The notes under the pieces: generated by a model
Database searches by the model: none
What the model saw: the letters and a program-made list of their open reading frames with translations, nothing else
What the model was told of the DNA's origin: nothing
Position numbers and translations under genes: made by a program
Shown: positions 1-51,243 of the stretch, one piece after another
How positions within the stretch are numbered: position 1 is the first letter of the stretch
Layout: the number at the start of each line of letters is the position of its first letter
Origin: Mytilus trossulus
Lineage: Eukaryota
Direction of reading: 5' to 3'
DNA: 64,000 nucleotides
NCBI RefSeq assembly: GCF_036588685.1
Contig: NC_086381.1
Coordinates: 13,640,001-13,704,000, forward strand

Positions 1-130
1 TTCGTGGAGCACTTGGAAGACCCAGCAATATACCGTTGTTTGTAAGGACACTTATGTAGTTTAGGTATCCAATACAGTGATGGAAGATCCAGTTCTTCAT
101 CTTTGGTTGAAATACTATAGACAACATAAG
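1..130 (-). mobile_element. Penelope-like retroelement (PLE) reverse transcriptase fragment
   Basis: Minus strand reads SISTKDEELDLPSLYWIPKLHKCPYKQRYIAGSSKCST, matching the PKxHK...R(P/Y)I RT motif of PLEs. Bases 1-65 also match 19778-19842. Confidence 0.8.
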
Positions 131-2455: not shown

Positions 2456-2780
2456 CCCGAGGGTATCACAAGCCCAGTAGTCAGCACTTGTTGTGCTGAC
2501 ATGAACTATCATTGATATGGTTATATTTAAAAATTAACTGTTTACAAAATTTGGAATTGTTTGAAATACTAAGGCTTTTCTACCTCAGTCATATATTACC
2601 TTAGCTGTATTTGGCAACACTTTTAGGAACTTTGATCCTCAATGCTCTTCAACTTCGTATTTAATTTGGCCTTTTGAACTTTTTTGGATTCGAGCGTCAC
2701 TGATGAGTCTTTTGTAGACGAAACGCTCGTCTGGCGTATATAAAGGAATTGGTCCTGGTTTCTACCATGAGTTCATTTAG
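2456..2780 (+). mobile_element. Retrozyme-like element, 5' truncated, with hammerhead ribozyme
   Basis: Reverse complement of the 17047-17488 family. Absent at the paralogous site ~25850. Confidence 0.85.
2694..2737 (+). ncRNA. Type I hammerhead ribozyme
   Basis: GCGTCA CTGATGA GTCT-TTTGT-AGAC GAAAC GCTC GTC^TGGCGT: intact catalytic core, stem II and stem I, with a minimal stem III. Confidence 0.85.
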
Positions 2781-8990: not shown

Positions 8991-10533
8991 ATGATTCCTT
9001 TGATAGCCATCTTTTATGTGGTAACTATAGCAGGCGCGACGAGTTCGTGCCAAACAGAAGACGGTAAGTTATTAAACTTTTTAGTCTAGATTATTACCAT
9101 AAATAATATATAAAGCAGGTACTACTAGAATCAAGCTATCAATATACTTTTTTGAATGAGGCTGAGAAAATGGGAAAGGGTGAGGTTCTACCGAGGTTCT
9201 ACCGAGCCTTTCCCCAGTTTTGTGCCGGGTACAAAAAGAATATCTTTTTTTGACATTGACCTAATATTGTTTTTATACTGCAACTTAAATTAATACATTG
9301 ATAGCTTTTTTAATTGTAAATTCATTTTAAAATGGCATGGTGAAATTGACATTGCACAAAATATAGCTGTGTTACTATATTTAGAAAATAATCACAATGA
9401 TTTTTTGTAAGAAGTTTTATAAGAATATGTAATATAATTTAATTTTAACAGTAGACATTTTTGAAGACAATACATCCGTTACATTTTAGTACAATTAAAC
9501 AAATGCGACACATGGAAGTTGTAATTTGTAAGTTGAAAGTTAGTTGCGGTATAAAGTCTATGCATTCATATTCCCTTTTCCTCTATCGCTCTGCATAGAT
9601 AGTCCTTGTGCAGTCGAATAAGTTTGACCTTGTATTGCTGTCTGCACCCGGAATCGCCAACCCTGTCGTAATGTTTGAACCAAGTTTGATACGTTTGACC
9701 TAAAATTATTATCGTCTCTTCCAATTTAATAAGGGAAAATTGTTTCTGTAATGAGAAATAATAAAATGTAATTCAATACGAATCATCATCTGGATTTCAT
9801 AATATAAGCTGCTCGACATTATTTCAATTTTTTCAAAACCTTTTTGAATGTGTTTATTCTACTTCATTAGTTCTGCCATTTTTATAGACGACAGTTGTGA
9901 ATGAAAAACAAATAATTTTAGGATTTAGTTATCTTACTACACATACACGTGCTTGCATTTATTTTCATATCAACGTCTTCAGTGACGAAAGTGCATTCCC
10001 TGAGAAATATTATGCAGTATTTAATTCATTTCATTTAAAAAATATCATAATAAAACACTTATAAAATAATTTCAGGTCAGTATGATGTCACTGTAAACTT
10101 CCGTGGTAAAAATGGTCAAGAAACACCCAAATCAACAGTAATTGCATTTTACGCCTATATATCAAAACCGATACCAAACCCGTCGAGTGGTCGACGACTG
10201 ATATTTGATGTGCCCACGACAAACCAGGGTAATGGATATAACAGCAATACTGGTGTTTTTACCTGTCCAAAGACAGGCACTTACGTTTTTGTGTTGGTTG
10301 TTAGATTGTACTCTGCGTATCATTCAATACAGTTAATGATTAATAATTCTGTGAATGGAACCTCCTTTCATAACGCCCAAAACGATGACAACACTTCCAG
10401 TAGTACTGTTGTTGTGAATGTGTCGAAGGGCGATACTGTTTACGTTCGTACCCATTCTAAATACAAAGGAGTTGGTAATATACACACTAATACATATGGT
10501 AGAACAACATTTTCTGGATGGCTACTGAACTAA
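8991..10533 (+). CDS. Secreted globular-head C1q domain-containing protein (sghC1q), 176 aa; exons 8991-9063 and 10076-10533
   Basis: Exon 1 is the signal peptide MIPLIAIFYVVTIAGATSSCQTED, then a phase-1 GTAAGT...TTCAG intron. Exon 2 has gC1q motifs AFYAY, LIFD, N.GNGYN..TGVFTCP..GTYVF, GDTVYV and TFSGWLL. AATAAA at 10547-10552. Confidence 0.93.
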
Positions 10534-17046: not shown

Positions 17047-17488
17047 AAATAAACTCATCATCGATACCAGGACTAAAATTTTACACTTACGCCAAACGCG
17101 CATTGCGTTTACAAAAGACTCATCAGTGACGCTCGAATGAAAAAATGTTAAAAATGCCAAATAAATTACGAAGTTGAAGAGCATTGAGGACCAAAAATTC
17201 CTAAATTTTTTGCAAAATACATACAGCTAAGGTAATCTATTTCAGAGTTTGAAAATCCTTAGTATTTCAAAAATTCAAAGTTTTGTAATCAGTTTTAAAA
17301 TTTATTACTATGAACATGTCAATGTTAACTCAACACAGAAGTGCTGACTACTGGGCTGGTGATACCCTCGGGGAAATAAATCTCCACCAGCAGTGGCATC
17401 GACCCAGTGGTTGAACATAAACTAATCATAGATACCAATACTCAAATTTTACACTGACACCAGACGCGCGATTCGTCTACTAAAGACT
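17047..17488 (-). mobile_element. Retrozyme-like element, ~1.2 units of ~370 nt, hammerhead core mutated
   Basis: Direct repeat AAACTCATCATCGATACCAGG / AAACTAATCATAGATACCAAT at ~17051 and ~17419. The HHR at 17089-17133 has GAAA changed to GCAA. Confidence 0.85.
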
Positions 17489-23183: not shown

Positions 23184-23587
23184 AAATAAACCCATCATAG
23201 ATACCAGAAATTATCTACGCCAGATGTGCGCTTCGACTACCGTGATGTTGAATCAAAAAGTTTAAAGAACAATAAAGTACGCAGTTGAAGAGTAATGAGA
23301 ACCAAAAATTCCAAAATGTTTTGCCAATTGTATTCCTTGGGTAGAACATAAGTATTTTAAAATGTTCATGGTTTGTAGACAGTCAATTCATTATTGCAGC
23401 TATACCAATGCTAATATATATCACCTTAGAATTATTGACTACTGGGTTGGTGATACCCTTTGAGAGCAGACATATACCAGCAGTAGCATCAAACAAGTGA
23501 TTATAGATCATAGATCATAGATCATAGATACCAGGCTTACCATTTTGTACGTCAGACACACATTTCGTTTACAAACGACTCGTCAGC
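23184..23587 (-). mobile_element. Degenerate retrozyme-like element (~1.1 units)
   Basis: Same family as 17047-17488, with both hammerhead positions degraded. Confidence 0.75.
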
Positions 23588-24233: not shown

Positions 24234-24774
24234 AGTTTGGACAGTTGTTCTAAGTTATAAAACCCCTAGTTTCTATTTTTTTCTTGGACTGGAAAAAGGA
24301 CTCCAAAAGTATTGTAAACCTTTTATATAACAACATAATATAAGTTCAAAGTGAATAGTGGAGGTTTATCAATGACTTTTTTTTATTTCCAACATTTATA
24401 TACTTTGTAGCATAGAACTATGGACGAGCCGTACGTATAACCCTTAGAATAAAAACGTTGTAGGCGTAAAATAAATACCCATAATTCTTTAAATTGGTTT
24501 CTTTATCTGTTTTACCCTATGTAGCTTTAATTAGGCAATTTCGGATGAATAGCTACAGACAGTCAGAATGTATTCTGATCTCTCGGATGTTATAATACGA
24601 CATGATCGCAAACTGGTATATGCAAATTAATACAGAATGGCGTTGTAAAAAGCAGAATGGGTTTTCTCATAATTGATTCTTATTATATACAACGTTAATG
24701 CTAAAGGCACCAATCTGTAAAAATGACTTATTGTTGTTGCTATATTCAATTTTGCCTTGAAGAGTTGTCAAAAT

Positions 24775-25018
24775 CATAAATTAACTGTATACAAAACTTT
24801 TGAATTTTGTAAATACTAAGACTTTTGTAACGGTCAGGAAGAGATTACCTTTAGTTAGCTTTATTAGGCAAAACTTTAAGGAATGTTGGTCCTCAATGCT
24901 TTTCAACACCGTACATTTTTTGCCTATTTTGGATTCGAGCGTCACTGATGAGTCTTTTGTATACGAAACGCGCGTCTGGCGTCAAAACAAAATGAAAGCC
25001 TTGTATCTATGATGAGTT
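24775..25018 (+). mobile_element. Retrozyme-like element, 5' truncated, with hammerhead at 24939-24982
   Basis: GCGTCA CTGATGA GTCTTTTGTATAC GAAAC GCGC GTC^TGGCGT. Absent from the paralogous site near 1590. Confidence 0.85.
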
Positions 25019-29779: not shown

Positions 29780-30662
29780 AACAAAAATGGTCGACAAGGC
29801 AATCATGTGATCCTTCCGGTGGCTTCGGCTTTCCATGGTATAGCAATCAATGATATTTGAATTGTTTGAGATACTGTAATAATTAAACGTTGATTTGTAA
29901 AGCTTTTCTTCTTTAATTTACTAAATAATCTATTGCATCACATCGTTTTATCTAAACTCTCAGTGTAGACTACCTTTATCGATCAGGCCTGGTACTTCAG
30001 TTTTGTTTAAATTTTCAAAATCAATACACAAAGTCGATATAGGTATTCATTGAGAAAATTCTTTTAAACATAACGATAGAAATACACTTATTGGTTCAAA
30101 CCTGGAACATGAGTCATAGCAGTATTTTTCATCATCAAGAACAACTTTAGATATTTTAAATACAAACAAGGAAACACTATATCTTCATCATCGATATCCT
30201 TAAAAGACCAACAACTTATTGTATATCGATGTAAGCAACATCTGTTCCTAATCATATGGTCTTATCTCATCATTATTAGCAAATCAAATATTTGTTCAAC
30301 TGAATTTTAAATATTCGACAATCGGTAAATTTGGAAATAAATTTGATTAATGTCGCTTATGATGGTAGATTATACTATACATTTGATGTGTATGAACATA
30401 CACGAGTTGTTTCCTTAGTTGTTATTGGCTTTATAGTAGCTGTCAGTAACTGAGATTCCTCTCTGATCTGTACAAAGTGTATTTTTTGTAGGGATGTATA
30501 ATTACCCTGCCATGTAATGTCTATGTTTTTCTCCTTTGTATCAATCTGATACATTCAGCCATTTTCAACTGATGTTCCTATGTTGTGCTGTTAAACCTTT
30601 TTCGAAGATGAATGAAGGGTTCGCATCCCACTAACATGTTAAATGCTGCCTCATTCTGTATG

Positions 30663-31080
30663 AAGTTATCAAATGTACCAGGATTATAAATTAATACGCC
30701 AGACGCGCGTTTCGTCTTCATAAGACTCATCAGTAACGCCCCGATCAAAATAGTTATAGTTTCAAAAAATAAAAAATTGCAGAGCATTGAGGACTCACAA
30801 TTACAAAAAGTTGTGCCAAAATATGGCTAAGGTAATCTATTCCTGGGATAAGAAAATCCTTAGGTTTTCGAAAAAGTCAAAGTTTTGTAGCAAGAAATTT
30901 ATTAAAATGACCATATAATTGATATTCATATCATCACCGAAGTGCTGACTACTGGGCTAGTGATACCCTCAGGGACGAAACGTTCATCAGCACTAGCATA
31001 GACCCAGTGGTGTTAATAGTTATCAAAGGTACCAGGATTATAATTTAATACGCCAGACTCGCGTTTCGTCTACAAAAACA
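30663..31080 (-). mobile_element. Retrozyme-like element, ~1.15 units of 354 nt, intact hammerhead at 30696-30739, 8-bp TSD
   Basis: Minus strand GCGTTA CTGATGA GTCTT-ATG-AAGAC GAAAC GCGC GTC^TGGCGT. TCTGTATG at 30655-30662 and 31081-31088. Inserted inside another repeat (~30540-31400). Confidence 0.88.
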
Positions 31081-31761
31081 TCTGTATGTGCTTGTCCCCA
31101 AGTTATGAGCTTGTATTTTAGTGGTTTCGTTTTTTGCTGTATATCATATTTGTGTTCGATCGTGTATTTGTTTTTTTACAAAAATCAGGCCGTTAGCTTT
31201 TTCGTTTAAATTGTTTTACGTTTCTTATGTCGGGGGTATTCATATATAGCAAATTTACAGATCAACCATTGTTGGGTTGATGTTTAGACGAGTTGTATCT
31301 ATATATATATATATATATTGGTTTTGTTCTTGTTGAAGAGCGTACAGTTACTAATAGGTGTTAACTTATTCGTCATGTATTTGTTTGTTGGGAGCTGTCT
31401 AAATGCAATCTTTTTATTTATACATTGAAGACTCCGTGTAAGCTGAATATGCATTGACAACCTTTATTGAATAATGAAGTAGAAATGGTTGTTTTTACTA
31501 ATAGGATAAACTATCTACTTGTCATACACAGTAATTTCTTCAGACAGAAAACAATATTTTGATATCCTTTTTTGTCAAAAATGATTTGTATGTAAGTGTT
31601 TTAATAAGACCGACATCAAAGTCTATTACAGATTCAAATCTGTATCCATAAACATTAAACTATTAAGAGTGGAAATTATACTTTAAGTATTCTAGGAAGT
31701 AAAAATTGGCTAACCAGTATTTGCTATATCATATATTGCGAGATGTAATAAATGGTTTCAA

Positions 31762-36779: not shown

Positions 36780-37011
36780 TATAATAAAACTTTGAAATTT
36801 TGAAAGACTAAGGATTATCTCATCCCAGGCATAGATTACTTTAGCCGTATTTGGCACACCATTTTGGAATTTTTGGGTCCTCAATGCTCTTCAACTTTGT
36901 ACTTGTTTGGCATTATTGCTATTTTGATCTGAGCGTCACATATGAGTCTTATGTAGACAAAGCGCGCGTCTGGCGTATTAAATCATAACCTGGGTACCGT
37001 TGATAACTAAT
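36780..37011 (+). mobile_element. Retrozyme-like element, truncated, hammerhead core inactivated
   Basis: GAGCGTCACATATGAGTCTTATGTAGACAAAGCGCGCGTCTGGCGT: both CTGATGA and GAAAC are mutated. Confidence 0.8.
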
Positions 37012-37319
37012 TATCCTACTGTAAAACAAATAAGAGGTATAGTTAGCTGCTTTTACCAGGTTTAACTCGTCATTATCTACAATTTCATTTTTTTAAATAC
37101 CTTGTATCATTTCCACTAAAGCATTAATATTCGACTACGTCTATTCTTATATATTTCATTTTATTACAATACGAACTCTATTTTGATTATTTTATCTAGG
37201 TGTACACCCGATAGTGATTTATGAAGGTGTTAGGGTCATAAAATATCAGAGTTAATAAGAAAGCAGATGAAATATAAAACTACAGATAGTTATCAAATGT
37301 ACCTGGATTACAATTTAAT

Positions 37320-37363
37320 ACGCCAGACACGCGTTTCGTCTACATAAGACTCATCAGTGACGC
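37320..37363 (-). ncRNA. Type I hammerhead ribozyme
   Basis: GCGTCA CTGATGA GTCT-TATGT-AGAC GAAAC GCGT GTC^TGGCGT. Confidence 0.85.
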
Positions 37364-37676
37364 TCAGATCAAAACAATTAAAAAGCCAAACAAATACAAA
37401 GTTGAAGAGCATTGAGGACCCAAAAATTCCAAAAAGTTGTGCCAAATACGGCTAAGGTAATCTACTCCTGGGCGTAAGAAAATCCTTAGATTTTCGAAAA
37501 ATTCAAAGTTTTGTAAACAGAAAATTTATAAAAATGACCATATAATTGATATTCATGTCAACACCGACGTGCTAACTACTGGGCTAGTGATACCCTCGGG
37601 GACGAAACGTCCACCAGCAGTGGTATCGACCCAGTGGTGTAAATAGTTATAAAAGGTACCAGGATTATAATTTAAT

Positions 37677-37720
37677 ATGCCAGACGCGCGTTTCGTCTAC
37701 ATAAGACTCATCAGTGATGC
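37677..37720 (-). ncRNA. Type I hammerhead ribozyme, core intact, stem I weakened
   Basis: GCATCA CTGATGA GTCT-TATGT-AGAC GAAAC GCGC GTC^TGGCAT. Two CpG-type transitions create stem I mismatches. Confidence 0.75.
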
Positions 37721-40408
37721 TCAAATCAAAACAATTAAAAAGCCAAACAGTCAGACAACATCTTTAAATAAAAGTAATAGAGGGGCGAAATATACTAAAG
37801 GGACAGTCAAACTCATAGATTGAAAATAAACTGACAACGCCATGGCTAAAAATAAAAATACAAATGATTAGCTTTATTAACAACAAAAAGTACTGGCTCA
37901 TATGTGTTTTTTTTATGACAATGCTGTTTCTCTTTAATGTCTAGAACATATTTTTGAGAAATCCGAATTTACAGTCCCTTGTTTAACAAATTTCTCACTT
38001 CCAATCAACCTTATCAAAAAACACAGACTTCAGTTCTTTAGTTTTTTGCCGAAAATTATTCTTAAATTCTTTTATATTTTGATGTTTTAAACATGGGACA
38101 TAATTCGAATGATAACATGTCCCAATGAATATTATTGCTTACCAAATATGTACATTCACGGTATCATATAGTCTGTCAAAACCTATATTTGCATTGCACT
38201 ATTTCATGTTTTTGCCAACTACTAATAACGTCTTTACTTTGAATTCATAGGATGTTGGATATGAACTGAATAATATTTCAATCATGGGTGCATGATTTTT
38301 ATATAAGTGGTTATTAACTTTTAGATCTAAGCTTTGTTTTTTCTATGTTTTGGTTAGTTTGTTATTTATGTTTTGTATTTTACTGTCATTATTTAATGTA
38401 GATTTTGCCCCACAAAAGTTGAAAATACCTTAATTTGAACGATTGCAAAATCGCCCAACACATACGCTTACGACTGCATACATGTTAAGCTTTATTTACC
38501 TTACTTTTTGGTTTAAGTTATTTTACATTTGATATCTTTATGGAAGTGGTAGATTCATGGCGACACATGTCGCTAACAGGAGTTGTAAGTAAGATTCAAA
38601 GTTATTTTTTAAGTTTTGTTTGAGTTGGAATAATTATTGATTTGATATAACAATGATTTATAAAACTGGTTGATAACTGATAGCATATTGGTGTAATGTG
38701 AAAAGTGTAAACTTTATCGCAACTGATGTACGATACTATTTGTACTAAACTTGAATAAACATGGTTTCATTCAGCTACATTTTAACATCACCCAAGCTAC
38801 CAGGAACACTGTAAAATATTCATAGAAAGAACAGTCTTTATTACAGCTCGTTATTATCTCAGATTTCATATGGTTATAATCAATTCTGTTGTCACGTTGT
38901 GGATTTGGAAATAGTGAAGATGTATCTATAGGTTAAATAGGTTAACGTGGGATAATAATTCGTCCAGTAATTGAGCGATTATAATTAAAGGCACTTTAGT
39001 TAAAACACCAACAGTTCTTTTTACATCTCATGTGTATAATAGAAAACGTGTTTAATCAGTGGATGTTATTGATAAGTTCCCATTATATAGCCTTCGATTG
39101 AATGGTTTTATGTTCTACCTCCATCATGTCAAAGACATGCTAGCTAATAGGCAGGATTCATAACAGAGGTGTAGCCCTCTGTCCAAATTATTGATTTGTT
39201 CCTCTAGTTTCGTTTTTTTGGTTTTTGGATTTTCATACTTATGTAAATTTTCTATATACTTAAAAGACTAAGTAAATATTGCATTGATAGTTTGAAGTAC
39301 GGCTTGGCTCTTTTTATGTTTCGTCCAACTACTGGCTTAATACGAATGTTTAATGAACAATTAATTTACAAAAATGGCGCATCAATGATACTTCATGTCA
39401 GCAAATGAGTATTAATTGCAAGAATGGTGATACTCCAGAAACTAGAGCGTCGACAAAGTTGTTTTAAAACTCATTTAACATAACAGACTTATGAATACAT
39501 GCGCAAGATGTGCATTTTATCTACACAAGACTTAGAAGCAAACGGCAAAAAGCAATTAGGAAGTTGAAGAGCACTTAAAACAAAACGTCCAATACAATTG
39601 TTTAAGAGTTTTTTGGCTAAGTGTACATGAATAAAAAGATGCTAAATTCCAAACTAGTGTTTAAAGTATAATAAATGTTATGGATTTGAGTAACTTTCTT
39701 CCGCAAGAAGTGTTATCTCAAACGTTTAAATGTGTTTTAAATCTAGTCTGCCTATCGTTTTATCACGTGTTAATAGTTGCGTGGAAAAAATATGTTTCAT
39801 TTCATTTCCTATGGGAGATTTATCAATCCATATAGACCTAGGTGGAAAGATTTAAAACCAATTAAAATCTACCGTTTATGGAAATACACTTAATGTTCTC
39901 TTTATTCAAATCTTCTGACACAAAATCGTTTTTATCTTTTCAAAAGTCAAATAATTAATCTCTTCTTGATATATTTTCAAATAAAGGAGAATGCAAGACA
40001 ATCAATCTTTTCATAAAACAATATTACAATTCATCGTCCAAATTTGTAGCACACAATATGATATTCTTAATATAGCAAATATCAATTATAAAGGTACATT
40101 TGCATACATCATATTACAGCAAAACTTAACAGCAGACAGTCTTGTCAAATCTAAACGACTGCTTATTTTGAGAAAACAAATGATAAAGAGAGATTTTAAA
40201 ATTGTATGTTTAGTAAAAGAGGGACGGAAGATACCAAATGGACAGTCCAAAATGTTCAATCAATTAAAATAGTTTGTGCCTCGGTGGTTTTGTAAGGACA
40301 TGTAAAAGCACTATGTTGACCCTTTAATGTCCTTTTTTTTTTGGTAATTTTGTTGTGTTGTTTGGTTGAATCTCAACATCTCTTAACTTTAATTTGAGAG
40401 ATTTTAAT

Positions 40409-48607: not shown

Positions 48608-49363
48608 TAAATGTAGGACAGATACATTAATGACATACATATATAAATGTAGGACGGGTACATTAATGACATACATATATAAATGTAGGACGGATACATT
48701 AATGACATACATATATAAATGTAGGACGGGTACATTAATGACATACATATATAAATGAAGGACGGATACATTAATGACATACATATATAAATGTAGGACG
48801 GATACATTAATGACATACATATATAAATGTAGGACGGATACATTAATGACATACATATATAAATGTAGGACGGATACATTAATGACATACATATATAAAT
48901 GTAGGACGGGTACATTAATGACATACATATATAAATGTAGGACGGATACATTAATGACATACATATATAAATGTAGGACGGATACATTAATGACATACAT
49001 ATATAAATGTAGGACGGATACATTAATGACATACATATATAAATGTAGGACGGATACATTAATGACATACATATATAAATGTAGGACGGATACATTAATG
49101 ACATACATATATAAATGTAGGACGGATACATTAATGACATACATATATAAATGTAGGACGGATACATTAATGACATACATATATAAATGTAGGACGGATA
49201 CATTAATGACATACATATATAAATGTAGGACGGATACATTAATGACATACATATATAAATGTAGGACGGATACATTATTGACATAAATATAGAAATGTAG
49301 GACGGATATATTAATGACATACATATATAAATGTAGGACGGATACATTAATGACATACATACA
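48608..49363 (+). repeat. Minisatellite, 21 x 36 bp
   Basis: Unit TAAATGTAGGACGGATACATTAATGACATACATATA. First unit at 48608, last at 49328. Confidence 0.97.
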
Positions 49364-51167
49364 TATAGAGAGAAGACTGATAACAACGATAGGTTTCCTG
49401 CTGACTTATCCTATAATTGTTACTGACGCAGACATACTAATAGATTGATTCAATAATGTTCGGCAAGAATTAACGGCTTGAATTGGTTTGTTGCGTCCAT
49501 CGTCTTATTTGTGTCTGATAAACTTACATGTACTGAATAATTTCTGTAAAATAAAGCATGAATAGGCATTCACTTATATTGATTTGATAAAGACATTGAC
49601 TTACTTATACATATATTATTCTGATATACAAGAACTGTTTGTGAAATCATTAAACAAATAAAGAGGATGCTTTACATCAAAAACAAATTAATTTTCCTAT
49701 GAAGGAACAGATTTTTTGATGACATGAAATTATCTGCTTTACAAGATGTATTATATCAACTGCCTATTTAATTGTCCAGCTGTCAGACACATGGCTTTTT
49801 CTGTTATTTTAGGCCCTGCTTGGAAATTTTCCTGACAGTTTGATATCAGGAAAACGGTTGTGAACGGATTGAGTATCTGGTTTCTCAATGTAATCCATTT
49901 ATTTTTATGCCATGTCAATCTGTTGAAATGTTTTTGAAGAGCGCTTGGGGTCCTTAATGCATTTAAAATTTGTTTGATATGGTATTAAATTTAAAGTACC
50001 AACTTTCAAAGTAATTAAATTTCGCACGCGACGCACAATCAGAACTACTAGACCTTGAACACCAAACTAAAGTAACAAAACATGATAGAGATACAAAATA
50101 CATACTAATTTTCACCTTACCACATCTTTATTACATTTGTAAATTAGTTGACCACGAAAATTTACAAAATCAAATTTAAAATCTACGCCCACGATTACAC
50201 GGACGTCTTCTAGTATTCGAAAAAAATAGAGATGAGAACTACATTATTCAAATAAGGCGATTAAAGGCATTGGAGGGAAATTTAAGTTTTGGTTTGAAAT
50301 TAAATCTTAAAAGATGTTAAAGAATGCTAATTCCAAAGGAAGATATTGAAGATTCAGATTCCATATAAAAACTAGAAAAGCAAAACAACATGATCTACTG
50401 GTAAAAATAAGATGCTACTTATAACCCTACATTGTTAACAAAAGTCTCATGTTTTAACATTTCTTTCTAACGCATTGGGTGCAACATGTAGAGAAGAATA
50501 TGCTTACCCTGTCGTGGCATTTGATATCAACTCGGGTTTTTGTTGAGTTTGTGTTGCTCATCCTTTAGTTTTATATCTTGTGTGTGTTGTGCTATTATGT
50601 AATCGTTGCAATTGTTTTTCGGCCATTATGTTAAAAAGTTAAGTTTAGATACTGATGACGTTTTACAAAGGCTGAGTGACCGCCTCAAGCTTTTCAATAT
50701 CGTATGAATTGAAAATAATAGAATATCGTAGCTACGATATATTAATGTATTCAAGCAGTGTTGTATTACATGATCTTAAAATGTTTTGACGCGGTACTAA
50801 AGGCTTGTAATGAGTTTTATGATGATGATAATTACGCTGTCAGTAAGGGGATCCTTATAAATATTTGAATTAATTTTTCTTTCCTTTATTAAGGTTGGCT
50901 GTTGTTTAACTGAACACAATTGAATTATGCAACGATAATGCATTGGCTGCCATCTCAATATTTCCCTCTTCTTCCAGACAACGTATTATGATCAAAAGTT
51001 GTGATGACAGTTTAATCGATACCAATATGTCATCATTGATGAGATATTAAATATATAAATATTATGAGATAATGGGCATAATAGACACGACACAAATATA
51101 AATTAAGTTTAATAGCTCATATGCAAACTAAACAGAAAGCAAAAAAATCATTAATTCTCTGAGAGTT

Positions 51168-51243
51168 ACATATGAGTTTTATGTGGACGAAGTGTGCGTC
51201 TGACGCATAAAATTTTGAGCCTGGTACCTTTGGTTACTATTTA
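51168..51243 (+). mobile_element. Retrozyme 3' remnant with degraded hammerhead
   Basis: CATATGAGTTTTATGTGGACGAAGTGTGCGTCTGACGCAT...GGTACCTTTGGTTACTATTT. Confidence 0.65.

Follow-up and report, generated by a model that had tools for sequence, protein, structure and literature searches.

The closest described system is the non-LTR retrozyme of the mussel Mytilus galloprovincialis, whose RNA was shown to self-cleave and to accumulate as abundant circles (Cervera and de la Pena 2020, PMC7229834). The model offered there runs from circular RNA to multimeric cDNA to tandem genomic copies and names Penelope-like elements as likely helpers. The same retrozyme appears in the accessible part of the PMC4918200 supplement as a label only (375 nt), and a 2020 review (PMC7761336) states in its accessible sections that retrozyme repeats show no motif indicating a helper. 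Li, Clavereau, and Pollet (2026, bioRxiv 10.64898/2026.07.22.740005) reported that retrozymes share sequence with Penelope-like ends and proposed that they hijack that machinery; as far as the available text goes, this is a vertebrate survey with Xenopus pLTR homology that includes no molluscs, end mapping, or start signal and treats Naiad in coral only. Thus, the literature already covers the element, the circle model, and, for vertebrates, a link to Penelope. The present findings bear on how animal retrozymes re-enter the genome and on how Penelope-like elements start copying and come to form partial tandems.

The window (the whole 64,000-nucleotide stretch of Mytilus trossulus DNA analyzed here) contains eight listed copies of such an element (Table 1). 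The repeat unit is 355 bp long and low in GC, carries a type I hammerhead, and occurs both dispersed and in tandem. According to the available text of PMC7229834, the M. galloprovincialis retrozyme likewise combines a type I hammerhead with 350- to 390-bp low-GC repeats, thousands of copies, and tandem arrays, a likeness of size, ribozyme type, and arrangement. The hammerheads surface by E value only (RF00163, 0.0007 to 0.008, below the gathering score); at the gathering score, Rfam gave no match. The ribozyme core is present in 10,054 exact copies at unit spacing in the genome (1.3 Gb, 14 large contigs), and retrozyme copies range from fragments to arrays of more than 70 units, with arrays on all large contigs. 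A second family (L328 to L387) has units of 349 to 351 bp that are ∼70% identical to the first, a CUGAAGA-type hammerhead cut after AUC, and the same Naiad-shared element. A poly(A)-type SINE was rejected; the copies have no tail. An LTR-type element was considered unlikely; the terminal redundancy varies in length among copies, unlike that of an LTR.

The copy at 30664..31077 is a worn, dead copy of this known, very abundant, mussel-type non-coding hammerhead retrozyme. It contains one complete hammerhead only, with cleavage predicted between 30702 and 30701 on the minus strand, and is therefore unable to release unit-length RNA; no frame of at least 120 aa was found across it, and its 63-nt element has decayed (fold z score of −1.2 versus −4.3 in a young copy). 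Four window copies had been said to exceed one unit, and they do (442, 403, 414, and 464 bp, or 1.14 to 1.31 × 355). In the copy at 30664..31077, the terminal redundancy and 30664-30723 disagree at 5 of 60 sites and have a single variant in common, one frequent within the subfamily, so that this overlap is uninformative about the template. In the younger copy at 37286..37749, a rare variant (present in 2 of 165 inserts) is common to both overlapping segments. This copy and the one at 36786..37011 lie tail to tail on opposite strands with 275 bp between them, and at 39345-39601 there is a distant relative (60%) of the unit that spans the junction.

TABLE 1 Features mapped in the window (ends of retrozyme copies are given relative to the cleavage site)
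Feature	Position	Strand	Remarks
Retrozyme copy	30664..31077	−	414 bp = 1.17 units; 89% identity to young family consensus; end (30663) at +39
Type I hammerhead motif, CUGAUGA...GAAAC, 2-bp helix III	30696..30739	−	RF00163 E 0.0019, 30.3 bits, below gathering score of 34
Tail, cleavage site to fixed 3' end	30663..30701	−	38-39 nt; by inference the first stretch copied by RT
63-nt Naiad-shared element (predicted bulged stem-loop)	30949..31011	−	Decayed in this copy; the retrozyme element is 87% identical to the 5' end of the young Naiad family
Terminal redundancy, 60 nt, half a hammerhead, 5' end of copy	31018..31077	−	Compared with 30664-30723
Direct repeat TCTGTATG, left	30655..30662	+	
Direct repeat TCTGTATG, right	31081..31088	+	
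Retrozyme copy, younger	37286..37749	−	1.31 units (464 bp), 95% identity; end at +40
Retrozyme copy, older subfamily	17047..17488	−	>1 unit (442 bp); end at +48
Retrozyme copy, older subfamily, decayed	23184..23586	−	>1 unit (403 bp); end at +39
Retrozyme copy, older subfamily, 5'-truncated	2456..2780	+	End at +49
Retrozyme copy, older subfamily, 5'-truncated	24767..25018	+	End at +42
Retrozyme copy, 5'-truncated	36786..37011	+	End at +41
Retrozyme 3' fragment, short	51158..51243	+	End at +43
Naiad copy, young, 5'-truncated: 5' part (boundary approximate)	1..113	−	Extends past left edge of window

The original prediction held that copies with an intact end stop at one point ∼40 nt downstream of the ribozyme cleavage site. 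The eight listed ends do lie in the same homologous ATTT(A) tract, but the distance is looser than was claimed, from +39 to +49, because tail length differs between subfamilies. Mapping of 3' breakpoints genome-wide bore out that the ends cluster at a fixed internal point and are neither random nor at the cleavage site: 45 of 54 copies with at least 90% identity, unselected for their end, stop at +36 to +47 (12 of 355 positions), and 0 of 54 stop at the cleavage site ±3. The clustering is looser in older copies (28 of 73 at 80 to 90% identity and 14 of 64 below 80%), in part an effect of early termination of their alignment to the young consensus. Among exact matches genome-wide, 3,753 break right after ATT versus 5,751 that read on, the former being an upper bound that includes internal array variants (at least 11 of the first 100 listed); at the cleavage site, 13 matches (9 places) break versus 10,054 that read through. 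Loci selected by their 3' end were taken from the first listed places (contigs 1 to 4), a non-random draw. In four public DNA runs, 281 to 779 contigs have unrelated loose ends at window position 31014/31015, and among the rows listed the fixed end is also found in runs X1 and X7, the latter labelled as another organism; an empty allele of the window locus was not seen among the matches listed from the four runs.

An RT frame at the left edge of the window led to a young family (the L091 family) as candidate partner; the copy at the edge is 1,468 bp long and 99.5% identical to a full-length copy. The family has intact 995-aa frames, a 3,370-bp tandem period, and partial tandems and is both abundant and young (57,215 candidates; 116 scored at 97 to 100%). 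Its protein carries, in one frame, GIY-YIG (residues 130 to 167, E 0.033) N-terminal to RVT_1 (640 to 849, E 0.0002), both below curated cut-offs, as well as the DKA motif (PADKA near residue 555), and a hammerhead pattern was not found in the 3,370-bp unit. On sequence, this family is classed as a Naiad (Penelope-like) by published criteria, namely, GIY-YIG, DKA, no canonical hammerhead, 3.4 to 4.4 kb, and partial tandems. The retrozyme resembles published Naiads (Craig et al. 2021, PMC8557442) in its 5' truncation, partial tandems, and fixed 3' end without poly(A); unlike the retrozyme, Naiads encode a protein and lack a hammerhead.

The sole match between the retrozyme and the one Naiad family compared is 63 nt at 87%, between the Naiad 5' end and retrozyme unit positions 7 to 69. 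Naiad copies end at −4 to −1 from this element in 30 of 36 cases, the main retrozyme family ends at −3 to −1, and in the second family 18 of 23 termini (two duplicate pairs among them; one further locus is a read-through) lie at +33/+34, which is −3/−2 from the element. With a shorter tail and the same offset in the second family, the 3' end follows the 63-nt element, not the ribozyme, across three families; an end set by distance from the ribozyme was rejected, and the ∼40-nt distance proved incidental. Relative to the 3' end, the retrozyme carries the cis signal of its candidate helper in the same position, and from these sequences it is likely that the Naiad enzyme starts retrozyme copying at a fixed point before the shared element. 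Compared with the 2026 preprint, the homology here is limited to the 63-nt element and the donor is ribozyme-free.

The 63-nt element folds better than shuffles (z scores of −4.3 and −3.1). A core, CTGCTGGTGGA...CCCC(G/A)AGG, opens 11 published Naiad consensus sequences (molluscs, hemichordates, and others), in which complementarity of the outer stem is kept with different letters, as judged by eye; this points to RNA structure more than to a DNA promoter. Within the Mytilus trossulus genome, only 2 pairs of the shared stem have changes on both sides. The predicted fold suggests that the element acts as RNA. The consensus sequences of PMC8557442 carry this 5' element, which the available text does not describe, and the tie to retrozymes there is a general remark only. 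In the Naiad and in the two retrozyme families alike, the ACCA that opens the element is preceded by a TGGT at a distance of 21 to 25 nt (68 of 107 distinct junctions). The two motifs map to window 30680-30686 and 31008-31011 (minus strand) and to L091:2295-2330 and could pair across the start site, a weakly predicted interaction (pair probability of 0.1 to 0.5).

The 5' ends had been described as variable, and they are: 157 of 177 copies pass the cleavage site and 51 of 177 exceed one unit, with a stop rate of ∼20 to 30% per 100 nt and no step at the unit boundary. Indel calls numbered 2 in 3,848 bases at the cleavage site and 1 in 2,386 at the start site versus 238 in 84,879 elsewhere. The seamless junction at the cleavage site and the large number of copies running past it therefore indicate a template continuous across that site. 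With only ∼41 nt between the cleavage site and the start, which lies 3' of it, a linear monomer produced by self-cleavage would yield at most ∼41 nt unless the enzyme jumps; circularization would turn the remainder of the unit into template.

Divergence between units is 1.4% within inserts versus 4.1% between them. It had been proposed that the overlapping segments of longer copies be compared for private variants, and units within an insert do share them: a rare variant is present in every round in 15 of 26 inserts of at least 3 units, and these 26 inserts carry 25 distinct haplotypes. One haplotype is kept in 58 of 60 multi-unit inserts, and 2 of 60 switch; the haplotype tests used 165 of 400 inserts, with those below 93% identity or above 4.5 kb left out. 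This variant pattern is what repeated copying of one monomer gives. Because rare variants are common to all units and both junctions are seamless, one circular template is favored over mixed multimers or jumping. The best explanation, which we regard as probable, is that the Naiad enzyme uses circular monomer RNA as its template, and in the data available from PMC7229834 mussel retrozyme RNA is present mainly as circles. A freshly made homogeneous array would likewise yield a uniform multimer, however, and more than one unit is by itself no proof of a ribozyme-made circle, because hammerhead-free Naiads also form partial tandems, evidently without a ribozyme circle. In these Naiad tandems, the junctions are exact and head to tail, and the overlapping ends share variants in 3 of 6 loci; variants common to the 5' pseudo-LTR and the 3' UTR occur in L091:2286-9070, L093, L094, and L095. 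Either homogeneous multimers suffice or Naiads own another way to a continuous template, and the Naiad may use circular or end-joined RNA.

These Naiad tandems also suit an explanation that keeps the Naiad enzyme and the internal start but takes as template a multimer transcribed through tandem arrays and left uncleaved, with the ribozyme circle as a side product. Long arrays are present as sources, cleavage by the mussel ribozyme is slow (kobs of about 0.1 per min, PMC7229834), and uncleaved RNA is the main substrate of Poseidon_Ac, the one purified Penelope-like enzyme, which needs no homology with the cut DNA (PMC11167929), as far as the accessible parts of these reports go. Fixation of new rare variants in every round, each insert with nearly its own haplotype, would nevertheless need a one-unit bottleneck; the variant pattern is star-like, and linear RNA makes up less than 5 to 25% of mussel retrozyme RNA in the available portion of PMC7229834. 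We consider a multimeric template possible but unlikely.

That a linear monomer could not give more than one unit, as was also argued, left out two routes, template jumping and insertion into an older copy; both were tested and are rare. In the first, unit-length linear RNA (the product of self-cleavage, or a molecule that extends from the stem-loop to the U-tract) would be copied by an enzyme that jumps from the 5' end to the 3' end of the same or another molecule. The element stands at the very start of the published Naiad consensus sequences, which makes an RNA 5' end there plausible, and locus L009 switches haplotype around the cleavage site, between unit positions 301 and 325. Inserts of 30 to 41 nt are in excess (11 versus 37 in the 42- to 141-nt range, P = 0.011, tested on 30 to 41 nt only, as the 27- to 29-nt bin is inflated by the search pattern), and cleaved linear RNA may be the source of this surplus of inserts up to 41 nt. 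Against jumping, the two candidate jump points show a lower indel frequency than the remaining sequence, exact matches that begin at the cleavage site number only 7, and the retention of one haplotype in nearly all multi-unit inserts excludes frequent switching between molecules, though not exact jumps within one molecule; we judge this route very unlikely. A pile-up of 5' ends between the start and the cleavage site in multi-unit copies was considered and rejected (11 of 47 versus 7.5 expected, P = 0.12); six of seven 5' ends at position 318 had been selected for that position.

The second route belongs to an explanation in which insertions reach about one unit at most and longer arrays arise later at the DNA level, by slippage, unequal exchange, or re-insertion into an older copy, as proposed in the available text of bioRxiv 10.64898/2026.07.22.740005. 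Locus L009 resembles an old array to which a young copy of 1.1 units has been joined. In some arrays, variants are shared between units (13 in L309, 6 in L106, and 6 in L247), and in an array of more than 70 units near a contig end (G000:C1:269288-307904) internal variants recur at a spacing of 1 to 11 units, a satellite-like growth; DNA-level growth therefore occurs and adds to array length. In 11 arrays of at least 5 units, however, 129 of 160 variants are single-unit and 31 are shared, where stepwise duplication predicts 66 single-unit variants; within-array divergence is flat with length (rho of −0.09, P = 0.5, n = 58), and lengths fall off smoothly across the unit boundary. DNA-level growth explains the longest arrays, not the class of 1 to 10 units, and as a general account it is highly improbable. 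One 10-unit array has no internal difference at all. A five-unit array with a 341-bp period (G000:C6:26967611-26969009), in which the sequence switches right after the cleavage site in each unit, is possibly a circle ligated after a loss of ∼14 nt.

The copy at 30664..31077 sits in a (TATG)n tract within an older repeat, and the original prediction assigned it an 8-bp target duplication. The two copies of TCTGTATG are in place, but most empty paralogs (7 of 8) point to a 4-bp duplication carrying one substitution, and 1 of 8 points to 8 bp; the true target duplication is 4 or 8 bp. A duplication of at least 7 bp was not found at the seven other listed window copies. In the genome sample, duplications were enriched, as predicted (at least 6 bp in 26 of 191 versus 7.6 in shuffled pairs; at least 8 bp in 8 of 191 versus 1.1; anchored at the 3' end and at least 5 bp, 34 versus 6.3), but they were a minority. 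Empty sites were reconstructed for 32 of the 191 inserts, those that had landed in other repeats (159 had no paralog among the sampled loci; self-matches of short inserts were excluded), and comprised 13 duplications (2 to 13 bp), 5 blunt joins, and 14 deletions (1 to 15 bp). With 13 of 32 sites duplicated, 14 of 32 deleted, and no poly(A) or repeat tail, the signature differs from that of a classical LINE or SINE.

At these near-blunt sites, a target TT lies right at the junction in 22 of 32 cases (background, 13%) and matches the U-tract of the retrozyme RNA, which suggests priming by 2 to 3 base pairs with a loosely placed second cut. Anchored duplications of 4 to 6 bp occur in 7 of 27 Naiad insertions versus 2.6 in controls, a small sample, and in 56 of 191 retrozyme insertions versus 23.9. 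Targeting of (TA)n, described for Naiads in the available text of PMC8557442, was not seen here. In the M. galloprovincialis retrozyme, TSDs are likewise given as "when present" in the accessible text of PMC7229834, which, unlike the present analysis, gives no fixed 3' end, start signal, target preference, or named helper family. Target-primed RT from a fixed internal site on a circle or multimer had been the central proposal; its fixed, internal start away from the cleavage site and its continuous template held up, but target duplications are not the rule.

Under the circle explanation, the Naiad protein would bind the predicted 63-nt stem-loop, and a nicked, T-rich target would likely serve as primer on the U-tract immediately 5' of the stem-loop. 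The circular monomer RNA would then be copied for anything from part of a round to many rounds, with copying stopping at a roughly even 20 to 30% per 100 nt, and resolution of the second strand would leave a blunt join or else a small duplication or deletion. That the enzyme is the Naiad's and the template a circle is what we infer from the shared element and the variant pattern. Poseidon_Ac (Frangieh et al. 2024, PMC11167929) is similar in that, in the data available, RT begins within the RNA at a point 3' of the hammerhead cut, depends on RNA lying 3' of that point, and matches genomic ends; its AT-rich (ATT) cuts on both strands are a further likeness. It is, however, an autonomous element of a different clade, with two start sites in an AC-rich loop ∼85 to 92 nt away from the cut and no homology to the cut DNA, whereas here a non-coding element has a single start zone on a U-tract that matches the target TT. 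The fixed end, the Naiad signal, and the target rule were not found in the literature searched, a result to which the supplements of PMC7229834 (Fig. S4, S5, and S9) and of the 2026 preprint may be relevant.

A broader reading can be put forward only tentatively. A ribozyme-made circle would have captured the conserved RNA start signal that opens Naiads (corals, molluscs, and hemichordates) and placed it ∼35 to 50 nt past its own cut, leaving the circle as the only full template, and the Naiad RT would carry out T-tract-primed, rolling-circle reverse transcription in the germ line. The ribozyme-free Naiads with the same geometry suggest that Naiads themselves may transpose via circular or end-joined RNA, which, if true, would explain the Penelope pseudo-LTRs. 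The data point to a candidate helper family whose young frames are intact, define the 63-nt element, place the start site within a few bases, and show a target preference; with these, the reaction can be set up in a tube to compare circle with linear RNA. An RT that is processive and initiates at a portable signal on circular RNA would also be a useful tool.

Nested insertions were seen at L082, L396, L234, and L198, with Naiads in retrozyme copies and retrozymes in a Naiad 3' UTR and in the second retrozyme family, and copies lie in or beside telomere-like (CCCTAA)n repeats at L019:971-2582, L046, and L047. Elsewhere in the window, a 159-aa frame at 10054-10533 resembles a C1q-type domain exon, and a 36-bp minisatellite of 21 copies at 48608-49365 is open in three frames.
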